Of a DNA stretch of 4,838 nucleotides, positions 154 to 4,838 are shown piece by piece (position 1 is the first letter of the stretch; each line of letters begins with the position of its first letter). The stretch is from a virus. Its lineage: Duplodnaviria; Heunggongvirae; Uroviricota; Caudoviricetes. Both the position numbers and the translations under genes were made by a program. Below the pieces are notes generated by a model. It did not search any database, was not told the origin of the DNA, and saw nothing but the letters and a program-made list of their open reading frames with translations. Where the stretch lies: the IMG/VR virus record IMGVR_UViG_2695420804_000009, positions 1 to 4,838 of that record. One strand, 5' to 3'.

Positions 154-225
154 TTGTGTGAATAACGACACAACTGCGCTTAGCTGTTTGTCAGGCACAA
201 TCACTTCAACATAGGGCGAAGCCTA
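154..225 (+). promoter_or_regulatory. Putative P2-type late promoter (P_F-like) with TGT-N12-ACA activator dyad
   Basis: TGT(155-157)-N12-ACA(170-172) lies within the imperfect palindrome TTGTGTG-N6-GACACAA (154..173). The dyad centre is ~85 bp upstream of the FI start codon, consistent with the roughly -55 placement of the Ogr/Delta site in P2/P4 late promoters. No strong -35 is present, as expected for activator-dependent promoters. The -10 is not confidently assigned (weak candidates around 197..214). Confidence 0.5.
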
Positions 226-248
226 ATCCAATCAGGAGGTTCGCCACT

Positions 249-1421
249 ATGGCTCAGGATTACCACCACGGGGTGCGCGTTGTTGAAGTCAACGAAGGCA
301 CCCGATCTATTACCACGGTGAGCACCGCCATCGTGGGTATGGTCTGCACGGGCGATGATGCCGATGCAAAAATGTTTCCTCTTAATAAACCCGTGCTGAT
401 CACTGATGTGCTGACTGCCAGCGGTAAAGCGGGTGAGTCAGGTACTCTGGCCCGTTCGCTGGATGCCATCGCTGACCAGGCAAAACCCGTGACCATTGTT
501 GTGCGTGTGCCGCAGGGTGAAACGGAAGACGAAACCACGACCAATATCATCGGCGCAGTGACTGCTGAAGGTAAAAAAACAGGTATGAAAGCCCTGTTAT
601 CTGCCCAGTCACAGCTCGGCGTTAAACCGCGCATTCTCGGCGTGCCAGGCCACGACACCAAGGCGGTAGCTACTGAGTTGCTGAGCGTGGCGCAACGCCT
701 GCGTGGATTTGCTTACCTGTCAGCGTATGGCTGCAAGACAGTGCAGGAGGCGATCACTTACCGCGAAAACTTCAGCCAGCGCGAAGGGATGCTGATCTGG
801 CCTGACTTTACTGGTTGGGACACGGTGCTGAATGCCGAAGCAACGGCATATGCCACCGCCCGTGCGCTTGGTCTGCGCGCCAAAATTGACGAGCAGACCG
901 GATGGCACAAAAGCCTGTCCAACGTGGGCGTGAACGGTGTCACCGGAATTTCTGCAGATGTGTTCTGGGATCTGCAGGACCCGGCAACCGATGCAGGTCT
1001 GCTGAACCAGAACGACGTCACCACGCTTGTGCGTAAAGACGGTTTCCGCTTCTGGGGTTCCCGCTGCCTGAGTGATGACCCGCTCTTTGCCTTCGAAAAC
1101 TACACCCGCACGGCGCAGGTGCTGATGGACACGATGGCAGAAGCACACATGTGGGCGGTGGATAAACCGCTTAACCCGTCGCTGGCCCGCGACATTATCG
1201 AAGGTATCCGCGCCAAAATGCGCAGCCTGGTCAGTCAGGGCTATCTCATTGGTGGTGATTGCTGGCTGGATGAGTCGGTGAACGACAAAGACACGCTGAA
1301 AGCCGGAAAACTCACCATCGACTACGACTACACGCCAGTGCCGCCACTTGAAAACCTGATGCTGCGTCAGCGCATCACCGATCAGTACCTGGTGAATTTC
1401 GCCAGCCAGGTCAGCGCGTAA
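249..1421 (+). CDS. FI: P2-like phage tail sheath protein (gpFI family)
   Basis: 390-aa ORF preceded by a strong SD (AGGAGG at 234..239, 9 nt spacer). The translation is closely similar along its length to P2 gpFI as I recall it (e.g. [107 protein letters not shown]). Confidence 0.93.
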
Positions 1422-1430
1422 GGGGACAAC

Positions 1431-1946
1431 ATGGCATTACCACGCAAATTAAAACACCTGAACCTGTTTAACGACGGGAACAACTGGCAGGGGATCGTTG
1501 AGTCGCTGACGCTGCCGAAATTTACCCGCAAATATGAGAAGTATCGCGGCGGCGGAATGCCGGGTGCGGTGGATGTGGATCTGGGGCTTGATGACAGTGC
1601 GCTGGACACAGAATTTTCCATTGGTGGTACTGAATTGCTGCTGTTTAAACAGATGGGTAAAGCCACGGTGGATGGCATCCAGCTGCGCTTTACCGGCTCT
1701 ATTCAGCGTGACGATACCGGGGAAGTGCAGGCCGTGGAGCTTGTCGTGCGTGGACGTCACAAAGAAGTGGATTCCGGCGAGTGGAAGACGGGCGAAAGCA
1801 ACACCACCAAAGTGACCAGTACCAACAGCTACGCGAAGCTGACCATCAATGGTGAGGTGCTCTATGAAGTGGACCTTATCAACATGGTGGAAATTGTGGA
1901 CGGTGTGGACCTGATGGAAGCGCACCGCAACGCCCTCGGCCTCTGA
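1431..1946 (+). CDS. FII: P2-like phage tail tube protein (gpFII family)
   Basis: 171-aa ORF starting 10 nt after the FI stop, with SD AGGGGA at 1421..1426. The translation resembles P2 gpFII (M..PRKLK, TLPK.TRK.E.YRG.GM.G, VDLGLDD.AL, RDDTGE..AVE.V.RGR.KE, IN.VE, HR...GL). Confidence 0.93.
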   Translation: MALPRKLKHLNLFNDGNNWQGIVESLTLPKFTRKYEKYRGGGMPGAVDVDLGLDDSALDTEFSIGGTELLLFKQMGKATVDGIQLRFTGSIQRDDTGEVQAVELVVRGRHKEVDSGEWKTGESNTTKVTSTNSYAKLTINGEVLYEVDLINMVEIVDGVDLMEAHRNALGL

Positions 1947-2285: not shown

Positions 2286-2516
2286 GGTTTACCGTATCAG
2301 GCAGAGTTACAGGTTCCGCAGGATATCGCGGTGATTGGCTATGACGATATCGAACTGGCAAGCTTTATGACGCCACCATTAACCACTATCCACCAACCGA
2401 AAGATGAACTGGGGGAGCTGGCGATTGATGTACTCATCCATCGGATAACCCAGCCGACCCTTCAGCAACAACGATTACAACTTACTCCGATTCTGATGGA
2501 ACGCGGTTCGGCTTAG
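2001..2516 (+). CDS. Chimeric 171-aa ORF: N-terminal ~90 aa of a phage tail assembly chaperone (gpE-like) fused in frame to the C-terminal ~75 aa of the ribose operon repressor RbsR (LacI family); probably a non-functional fusion
   Basis: SD AGGA at 1990..1993. The N-terminal part (..[43 protein letters not shown]..) has the gpE / Phage_E character. The C-terminal part ([73 protein letters not shown]) is a LacI-family effector-domain C-terminus consistent with RbsR. No LacI-type N-terminal HTH is present. Confidence 0.6.
2258..2264 (+). other. Programmed -1 ribosomal frameshift slippery site T_TTT_TTG (E/E' recoding signal)
   Basis: TTTTTTG lies in the X_XXY_YYZ register relative to the E frame (codons ACT TTT TTG), at codons 86-88 of E. 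That is the position and sequence type described for the P2 E/E' frameshift. Confidence 0.6.
2286..2516 (+). pseudogene. rbsR: rbsR 3' remnant (ribose operon repressor, LacI family), missing the DNA-binding domain and most of the effector domain
   Basis: The C-terminal LacI-family sequence ends ...LMERGSA* at 2516. Its 35-bp convergent overlap with the hsrA 3' end (2482..2516) matches the rbsR/hsrA arrangement as I recall it in E. coli K-12. The 5' boundary is approximate (junction somewhere in 2265..2295). Confidence 0.8.
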
Positions 2517-3909
2517 ATTTACGCTGTCTTTTGATCAAATTATTACCATCGGTTGTTTTCAGAAGCATGAACATTGCTGCTGAAGCAACAGTAATAATGC
2601 CCATCGTGATAAACGTATAGTGGAATTGTTCGACAGTCGTTGTGCCTTCCATCCCTTCATAAACGCGAAGGACGGCCGCACTTACAGCAACGCCTAAACT
2701 AATCGACAGTTGCTGCGTGACCGCCAGAACACTGTTACCGCTGCTGGCGTTGTCATCGGTCAGATCGGCAAGTGTGATGGTATTCATCGCGGTAAATTGC
2801 GTCGACATAGCCATCCCTAATATAAACAACGGCAAGATCAGCATCCATATCGCCATTGCCGGTGATTGCAAAGAGAACTGAGCGATCATTAGCCCAATAA
2901 TCACCGTGATCCCCACTAACGTATGGCGATAGCCCAGACGACGTAAGACTTGGGTAACCATCGATTTTGCAATAATGGAACCTAACGCTGTCGGTGCCAT
3001 CATACAGCCGGCAATAAACGCCTGATAACCAAATCCTACCTGTAACATCAATGGCATAAGGAACGGTACACAACCGGTCCCCAGACGGGTTGCAATATTG
3101 CCTACGATACCGATCGAGAAAGTGCGGGTTTTAAATAAATCTAATGAAATTAATGGGTTTGGCGTGTGTCGCGCATGGAGAATATAGAGAAGCAGTAACC
3201 CGATGCTGGTGACAATTACCGTCAAGGCAATCCAGCTGGCGACAATCTTTTCCCCGAATAGCTCTATTCCGCTTGAGAAGAGAACAAGGCTGAGGCCAAA
3301 CAGCAAAAAGCCAGTGATATCGAATCTGCGTCGTGCGGTGGTGAAATTGGGCATATGTTTGCGCGCGTAAAGAAGGCCCGCAATACCTATGGGGATATTG
3401 ATTAAAAATATCCAGTGCCAGGTTGCCCAGGTGACCAGCACGCCGCCAAGAACGGGGCCTAAAATTGGCCCCACCAGACCCGGCATGGCGACAAAATTCA
3501 ATACTGGAAGAAGTTCATTACGAGGATAAGCGCGCAGTAAGGCCAGCCGAGCAACAGGCATCATCATTGCGCCGCCTATCCCCTGAATAACCCGGAAGAC
3601 AACCAGCTGTGGTAGCGAATTAGAAAGTGCGCAGGCCAGAGAACCCAATGTGAACAGACTCACGGCAAGGGTAAAAATGCGACGCGTACCGAAGCGATCG
3701 GCTAGCCATCCGCTTACCGGAATAAGCATCGCCACCGTCAGCGTATAACTGATGATGGCTGATTGCATCGCGAGAGGAGAACGATTAAGGCTATGAGCGA
3801 TTGCGGGTAAGGCGGTATTCAGAATAGTGGCATCAAGTGCCTGCATGAAGAAGGCCATCGCCGCGATCCACGGCAAACCCGCCATACTGCGATTCTTTTT
3901 ATCGCTCAT
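2482..3909 (-). CDS. hsrA: MFS (DHA2-type) efflux transporter HsrA/YieO
   Basis: 475-aa ORF, highly hydrophobic with many predicted TM segments. The N-terminus [35 protein letters not shown]... and the overall sequence match my recollection of E. coli HsrA (YieO). SD AGGA ~6 nt upstream of the start on the minus strand. Synteny with yieP and rbsR supports the call. Confidence 0.93.
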
Positions 3910-3931
3910 TCAATGTCCTGTTATCGGGTTG

Positions 3932-4624
3932 TCACTTATCAGGTGAGCGTAGCAGCGCCTGACAAGCTTTAAATGCCGCGTCGCCATCGCTTTGGACAAT
4001 CGCATCGACAATCGCCTGGTGCAGATCCAGCTTTATCACTGTGTCGCTGGTAATTGACGTGAAGTAAGTGTGATAAACCGAATGGAATAGCGAGGCGAAT
4101 GAGGTCAAAAACGGATTGGCGCTCATTTCATAGATATGCTCATGCCAGGCCATATCGACTTCGATCCAGCGTTCACGGCGAAAGTTCTCTTTTAATGCCG
4201 CCATTTCGGCCATTAACGTATTGAGATGCGCCTTCTGTTCCGCGGTGCCAACCGTTGCAGCCAGTAGGCAAGCTTGCGGCTCCAGACAGATACGCATAAC
4301 CAGAAAGTGATCGATGACCTGATGAAAGTTCTCTTCTGTCATCCACCAGGTAAGCAATTCCTGATCAAGAAAATTCCAGTTTGATTGTGGCATGACCCGG
4401 GTACCAATTCGCGGTCGCGGTAAAACCATCCCTTTTGCCGTTAACGTTTTGACCGCTTCGCGTACCGCTGTACGACTCACTCCAAATTGCTCGCCCAGCT
4501 CAATCTCACCAGGCAAAATGGTGCCGGGTTCATATTCACCTTTTAAGATGCGTTGCGCCAGCTTCTCAGCCAGAACATACGAAAGGTTTTTCTGTGCAGC
4601 TAACTGTTGTGCGCTTAAAGGCAT
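3932..4624 (-). CDS. yieP: GntR/FadR-family transcriptional regulator YieP
   Basis: 230-aa ORF with an N-terminal GntR-type winged HTH (..GEYEPGTILPGEIELGEQFGVSRTAVREAVKTL...) and a FadR-like C-terminal domain. SD AGGAAG 8 nt upstream of the ATG on the minus strand. Ends 22 bp upstream of the hsrA start, suggesting a yieP-hsrA operon. Confidence 0.9.
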   Translation of the reverse strand: MPLSAQQLAAQKNLSYVLAEKLAQRILKGEYEPGTILPGEIELGEQFGVSRTAVREAVKTLTAKGMVLPRPRIGTRVMPQSNWNFLDQELLTWWMTEENFHQVIDHFLVMRICLEPQACLLAATVGTAEQKAHLNTLMAEMAALKENFRRERWIEVDMAWHEHIYEMSANPFLTSFASLFHSVYHTYFTSITSDTVIKLDLHQAIVDAIVQSDGDAAFKACQALLRSPDK

Positions 4625-4734
4625 TACTAATCTTCCTTTTTCTTTTTATTCCTCCTTAGTATGCCACCAGGAAGTGTGATTACGGTTGCAAAAACGGCAA
4701 ATTGCTTGTTTTATGGCACATTAACGGGGGTTTT

Positions 4735-4749
4735 GCTGAAAAAATGCGC
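4735..4749 (+). promoter_or_regulatory. Putative Fis binding site I of the rrn P1 promoter (centre about -71)
   Basis: gctgaaaaaatgcgc is a 15-mer with G at position 1, C at position 15 and an A-rich centre. Its centre at 4742 is 71 bp upstream of the inferred P1 start at 4813, matching the known Fis site I position of rrn P1 promoters. Confidence 0.45.
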
Positions 4750-4754
4750 GGTCA

Positions 4755-4813
4755 GAAAATTATTTTAAATTTCCTCTTGTCAGGCCGGAATAACTCCCTA
4801 TAATGCGCCACCA
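4755..4813 (+). promoter_or_regulatory. rrnC P1: Ribosomal RNA operon P1 promoter (rrnC P1 by synteny): UP element, -35, -10, GC-rich discriminator and +1
   Basis: AGAAAATTATTTTAAATTTCCT (UP element, 4755..4776), -35 TTGTCA (4777..4782), 16-bp spacer, -10 TATAAT (4799..4804), discriminator GCGCCACC, +1 A at 4813. This is essentially identical to the classic rrnB P1 core sequence. The transcript leader runs to the window end. Confidence 0.9.
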
Positions 4814-4838
4814 CTGACACGGAACAACGGCAAACACG

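Follow-up and report, generated by a model that had tools for sequence, protein, structure and literature searches.

Positions 98-2294 of the DNA studied here are very probably the proximal part of a PF late operon with P2-like regulation (promoter, FI, FII and E), belonging to a Wadgaonvirus-type prophage that is defective (two IS26 copies, E cut) but that comprises more than two genes. The earlier note on this DNA had described FI and FII as an orphan pair of tail genes. This description did not hold on the left side, since the neighboring prophage genes are found on two further contigs of the same assembly, but it stood on the right side, where E', T, U, D and ogr are missing and the 3' end of rbsR follows instead.

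The window, that is, the whole stretch of 4838 bases, is the complete short-read contig CXZN01000059.1 of the E. coli assembly GCA_001284765.1. It begins on the - strand with the end of an IS26 (IRL side) at 1-97, identical to positions 6001-6097 of the corresponding locus of genome 23CRST010 (L001). P2-like phage DNA on the + strand follows at 98-2294, and the remaining part (2295-4838) is E. coli chromosome, formed by the rbsR 3' end, mdtD, yieP and an rrn P1-type promoter, with 100% identity to many complete genomes. Both contig edges are repeats (IS26 and rrn) of the kind that break short-read assemblies. As a single piece, the window was present in none of 5426 complete E. coli genomes, and an Rfam search of the window gave no match. 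Regarding the right end, a near-consensus promoter (TTGTCA, 16 bp, TATAAT; 11/12 positions) preceded by an A+T-rich stretch is located at 4777-4804. Its counterpart in reference genomes is about 265 bp upstream of the 16S gene, and it looks like the rrnC P1 promoter, with the contig ending just beyond it.

The phage DNA was compared with phage 500465-1 (NC_049342; Peduoviridae, Wadgaonvirus), to which it is 99.8% identical over 2197 nt, and with three prophages from three other assemblies (L088, L089 and L095), from which it shows no difference in 2197 nt. These three prophages run on into E', T, U, D and ogr beside ybjL. The possibility raised before that the two genes are simply decaying is contradicted by these results: there are no private mutations and, hence, no sign of erosion and no basis for a dN/dS calculation. 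Most of a query covering positions 1-2320 was found in 968 of the 5426 complete genomes. The segment is ordinary: it comes from a P2-like prophage that is very common in E. coli, and its P2-type biology is already known. Its biological weight is accordingly small, as roughly one in five complete E. coli genomes has a prophage with an identical promoter, FI and FII. Wadgaonvirus prophages, of both E. coli and Klebsiella, share with the window 99.8-100% identity over 98-2294 and the invertase-PF-FI-FII-E layout; unlike the window, they continue into E', T, U, D and ogr and present no IS26 at the window's positions.

The phage part encodes three tail genes on the + strand. By its sequence, the FI product (249-1421, 390 aa) is a contractile tail sheath protein of the P2 FI/T4 gp18 family whose domains span the protein, with residues 27-377 covered by PF22671, PF04984 and PF17482. 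The FII product (1431-1946, 171 aa) is assigned in the same way to the P2 FII tail tube family with a full-length domain, PF04985 covering residues 4-170 of 171 (E = 9e-60). The Pfam matches of both proteins (Phage_sheath_1, Phage_sheath_1C, Gp18_domIII_N and Phage_tube) had E values from 3e-33 to 9e-60. Their lengths are those found in intact prophages, and exact protein matches were obtained on 354 contigs for FI and on at least 1000 for FII. The statement that both genes are full length and preceded by strong Shine-Dalgarno sequences was thus borne out, with AGGAGG at 234-239 for FI and AAGGGGA at 1420-1426 for FII giving anti-SD duplex energies of -11.0 and -8.3 kcal/mol, respectively, against only -4.0 kcal/mol for E. 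The third gene, E, encodes the tail assembly chaperone and is present at 2001-2294 as codons 1-98 of 100, retaining the -1 frameshift heptamer T TTT TTG at 2258-2264. As noted previously, no baseplate, tape measure, tail fiber or activator gene is in the window, yet nearly all of E lies just downstream of the pair. Between FII and E, a GC-rich hairpin without a T run is located at 1958-1975 on the + strand (dG -17.4 kcal/mol, z = -3.1). It may act as a partial terminator or as an mRNA stabilizer that sets the ratio of FI and FII to the distal genes.

Concerning the regulation of these genes, the TGT-N12-ACA dyad TGTGTGAATAACGACACA at 155-172 (+ strand, center 163.5) is the predicted Ogr/Delta-type activator site of PF. 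In P2, this consensus is common to the four late operons, which depend on Ogr (PMC3931495). The bare pattern has no statistical value, with three matches in the window versus 1.36 expected (32 of 200 shuffles reach three, which is non-significant) and 10 matches versus 9.6 expected in the 37 kb of phage 500465-1, so the weight of the assignment rests solely on position and conservation. This intact relative has three late-promoter intergenic regions (P/O, before V and before FI) with one perfect dyad apiece, and the chance of such a result is about 3e-5, as calculated arithmetically from 10 matches per 37 kb and regions of 142, 68 and 142 nt. Moreover, 80 IMG/VR relatives provided 65 distinct sequences upstream of FI, and every one of them has a dyad at -87 to -94 from the ATG. 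When 64 distinct regions were aligned, with overall identity down to 36%, T154, T155, G156, T157, A170, C171 and A172 were invariant and the 12 spacer positions all varied at least once (A161 is replaced in only one of the 64). The dyad is taken as genuine because its arms are invariant at a fixed position while the spacer varies, and the earlier proposal of an Ogr/Delta-type late-promoter site at the expected distance agrees with these data.

The rest of the promoter can be placed by P2 geometry. The sequence CAACAT at 207-212 (+ strand) is the predicted -10 element, with A208, A211 and T212 invariant in the 64 relatives, and transcription is predicted to start at A219 (+ strand), which is A in 60 of the 64. 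A start at this position would leave a leader of 30 nt (about 25 nt in P2) and would put the dyad center at -55.5, P2's annotated sites giving 55-58; the P2 GenBank record annotates both the pF activator site and its start. As for PV, the dyad center in the relative is 55.5 bp from the V start codon; in P2, a leaderless mRNA is annotated as starting at this codon, with its activator site centered 55.5 bp upstream. The -35 position of PF reads CTGTTT and, judging from this sequence, PF lacks a functional -35 element; the promoter scan predicted no sigma-70-like promoter on the + strand of 1-2600. Considering all this, the identification of PF as a P2-type activator-dependent late promoter appears well supported by conservation, with homology to P2 pointing to the dependence on the activator. 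Alignment of the promoter to P2 DNA was also tried and gave no usable similarity outside the motif. The sole sigma-70-like site of 1-2600 is on the - strand at 113-142 (TTGTCT, 18 bp, CATAAT; 9/12 positions); it faces IS26 and the invertase, and it is within chance expectation.

The P2 PF operon (FI FII E E+E' T U D) resembles the window in the FI-FII-E order, in the T TTT TTG site within E, in a promoter without a -35 element whose TGT-N12-ACA dyad precedes the start (in the window, the predicted start) by about 55 bp, and in a GC-rich inverted repeat after FII (the P2 one was read by eye, not folded). P2 FI is 68% identical to the FI of the window over 393 aligned positions and P2 FII is 53% identical to its FII. 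On the other hand, the promoter DNA cannot be aligned outside the motif, the upstream neighbor in P2 is fun(Z) whereas in the window it is a DNA invertase, and the operon of the window is cut after E codon 98.

On the left side, the element at 1-97 is an IS26 (IS6 family), since it shows the terminal repeat and an 8-bp duplication on both flanks. On the + strand the terminal repeat reads ...TTTGCAACAGTGCC, and the 14-bp IS26 repeat GGCACTGTTGCAAA occupies 84-97. The start codon of tnp26 is at 32-34 on the - strand, so transposase transcription is directed away from FI, and the counterpart in 23CRST010 (L001) belongs to an annotated IS26 of 820 bp, of which it is the end and which has a duplication of 8 bp. 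The phage DNA starts immediately with the last two codons and the stop of the invertase (TCC CCC TGA, 98-106, + strand), as deduced from the alignment to 500465-1 and prophage L006, and the first eight of these bases, TCCCCCTG (98-105, + strand), are the target duplication, also present before IS26 on CXZN01000079.1. From the IS26 end it is 57 bp to the dyad and 122 bp to the predicted start; at that distance the promoter is untouched.

A simple IS26 insertion was tested by predicting the read-through peptide and the target duplication and then looking up the exact peptide. With the invertase allele of the zero-difference relatives, the predicted product, invertase(1-188) followed by WALLQS (194 aa), matched exactly CTT17182.1, which is encoded on CXZN01000079.1 in the same assembly. 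This contig of 2002 bp carries the invertase, the invertible fiber segment and the tail-fiber assembly gene; its positions 1-97 are the 97 IS26 bases of the window and its positions 1905-2002 are 98 IS26 bases that follow TCCCCCTG. As IS26 is found at both ends, a second copy in the same orientation must be inside the tail-fiber assembly gene. The peptide predicted for this other insertion, TAP(1-41) followed by RALLQS (47 aa), matched exactly CTS73182.1 at the end of CXZN01000028.1, also in this assembly, and the duplication GGCGTAAG is the same on both flanks (CXZN01000028.1 and CXZN01000079.1); on CXZN01000028.1, this second IS26 is located at 10126-10224 of locus L099. Both junction ORFs occur in the Logan assembly of ERR134549 as well. 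In CXZN01000028.1 (56.9 kb), the final 10 kb contain the end of the terminase gene P, then O, N, M, L, X, holin, lysozyme, LysA/B/C, R, S, V, W, J, I and the tail fiber gene H, with dyads at the P/O and V promoters, the latter centered 55.5 bp from the V start codon. P2-like tail genes elsewhere in the genome, which it had been recommended to look for, are thus present on these two contigs (tail fiber and baseplate).

According to these data, the order CXZN01000028.1, IS26, CXZN01000079.1, IS26, window is ancestral and is probably also the present one; matching duplications prove ancestral contiguity alone, and the three contigs could since have been parted by recombination between IS26 copies. 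Along this order, the first IS26 is in the tail-fiber assembly gene and the second at the stop codon of the invertase, leaving the promoter whole. Where a contig stops inside an IS element, a prophage fragment can be mistaken for an orphan; here the prediction of read-through peptides and duplications, followed by exact look-up, re-linked three contigs of a draft assembly. The 1.8-kb segment that lies between the two direct copies of IS26 (invertible region and invertase) is arranged like a pseudo-compound transposon.

On the right side, the truncation of the operon is confirmed in the assembly. The rbsR codons 258-330 and stop (2295-2516, + strand) follow E in frame, which creates a chimeric ORF, E(1-98)::RbsR(258-330), of 171 aa (2001-2516, + strand; CTT12394.1). 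The join at 2294|2295 is blunt, without shared bases or microhomology, and the contig passes it cleanly, with no N and no IS sequence. In the -1 frame, the junction leaves 10 native E' residues followed by 16 foreign ones, versus a native E' extension of 57 residues. With E cut at codon 98, the E+E' chaperone, the tape measure gene T, U, D and ogr are missing at the locus, as is the part of rbsR, the ribose repressor gene, upstream of codon 258. No other record of the chimeric protein was found among about 15 billion proteins, nor was the junction found in the 5426 complete E. coli genomes. The precise reciprocal product, RbsR(1-257)+TA, was looked up with either of two starts, and no exact match is recorded. 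No terminator was predicted after FII or E, so PF transcripts would enter mdtD in antisense. The E::rbsR' ORF (+ strand) and mdtD (- strand) share 35 nt at their 3' ends (2482-2516), as in wild-type rbsR/mdtD.

The origin of this join is not straightforward. We take rbsR and the ybjL-site prophages to read in the same direction on the K-12 map and, with this orientation, a one-step join of the 5' part of E to the 3' part of rbsR would delete about 3 Mb, with oriC among it, and could not yield a viable cell. An inversion would give a different junction. IS26-mediated deletion, inversion and translocatable-unit models each leave an IS26 at the join, where there is none, and were rejected. The remaining options are another integration site, a multi-step rearrangement, a partial second copy or a scaffolding join. 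If real, the join implies a larger chromosome rearrangement and an isolate that lacks at least the distal tail genes at this locus.

It could be that the join is an assembly or scaffolding product, or belongs to a partial second copy, and that the prophage is nearly intact through ogr except for the two IS26 insertions. The uniqueness of the junction among complete genomes and proteins, its awkward geometry without microhomology, and the fact that the chimeric ORF is recorded only from the NCBI assembly and not from the Logan assembly of ERR134549 are in favor of it. Nevertheless, the contig is clean through the junction, the assembler broke at true repeats (IS26 and rrn) and not at 2294|2295, and an exact in-frame join is what a real sequence is expected to show, and this explanation was considered unlikely. 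Another view is that FI and FII are a true orphan, an isolated remnant giving extra or interfering subunits only when a foreign Ogr or Delta appears. It would fit a window without other tail genes save most of E and the loss of T, U, D and ogr downstream, and adjacency across IS26 is deduced from duplications and not read through. However, the other two contigs hold the neighboring prophage genes in the expected order, and exact matches were obtained for the two predicted read-through peptides and the two 8-bp duplications, which makes a true orphan very unlikely.

A different question is whether the IS26 could drive the two genes by itself. IS26 ends can form hybrid promoters, and the terminal repeat carries an outward -35 sequence, TTGCAA (85-90), 7 bp from its tip, so that FI and FII might be transcribed constitutively, independently of any activator. 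The best -10 candidates at a spacing of 16-18 bp (ATCAGC, TCAGCA and CAGCAT) match the consensus at three of six positions at most, though, and the promoter scan mentioned above is also against it; such constitutive expression was given almost no chance. The data fit better with the proximal PF operon of a defective prophage under P2-like control.

For this operon, the mechanism proposed is that a zinc-finger activator of the Ogr/Delta family would bind the dyad about 55 bp upstream of the start and recruit RNA polymerase; P2 Ogr works via the alpha subunit of this enzyme. By analogy, PF should be silent without an Ogr/Delta-family protein, and its genes would remain so until one is made. Promoters of this type are those activated by Ogr, Delta or the B protein of phage 186. 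The supply of such proteins in the species is wide: the ogr of the window's phage type was found in 1330 of the 5426 complete E. coli genomes and P2-type ogr/ogrK in 2210 of them. P4-like satellites, which are present in almost half of E. coli genomes (PMC8628076), encode Delta, a homologue of Ogr able to turn on the late genes of P2.

Should the cell have or acquire an Ogr or Delta protein, activation would extend beyond FI and FII to all four late operons of the defective prophage, and heads, baseplates and lysis proteins would be produced together with sheath and tube. There is no tape measure gene, U or D at the locus, so no complete tails would be formed without a helper. With a helper of the same type, the identical FI and FII subunits would simply add to its pool, and with P2 as the helper (68% and 53% identity) one could conceive of mixed assembly or interference, although this is speculative. 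A prophage without its own ogr at the locus but with all four late promoters intact (PP/PO and PV on CXZN01000028.1, PF in the window) might even, instead of being inert, serve as a suicide or decoy module that an activator triggers, or as a donor of parts. If so, holin, endolysin, head, baseplate, sheath and tube would be switched on when a P2-like phage enters or a P4-like satellite is induced, and the E::RbsR' fusion could also poison tape-measure chaperoning, but such a role is highly improbable.

R-type tailocins and domesticated contractile-tail clusters were also compared, as they have a sheath and a tube of the same Pfam families. Tailocins keep baseplate, tape measure and fibers and have no head genes, whereas the window's prophage has head genes (on CXZN01000028.1) and no tape measure at the locus, so an R-type tailocin was ruled out.

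Furthermore, three complete genomes (23CRST010, at L001 5278-6097, E47 and FORC_081) carry, like the window, an IS26 in or next to the invertase upstream of FI and in the same orientation. Their insertion points are different from that of the window, and the 23CRST010 prophage is otherwise complete through ogr. Together with the window, these are four independent IS26 positions, which may indicate a preferred target or a selected event. In prophage L088 (GCA_001285585.2, CYDX01000001.1, 8767-13700), whose FI-FII-E DNA is identical to the window, the tape-measure gene has a TGG-to-TGA nonsense change and the invertible fiber segment is directly adjoined by yeh genes, whose place on the K-12 map is at about 2.2 Mb, an arrangement that suggests a large inversion with one end inside the prophage.
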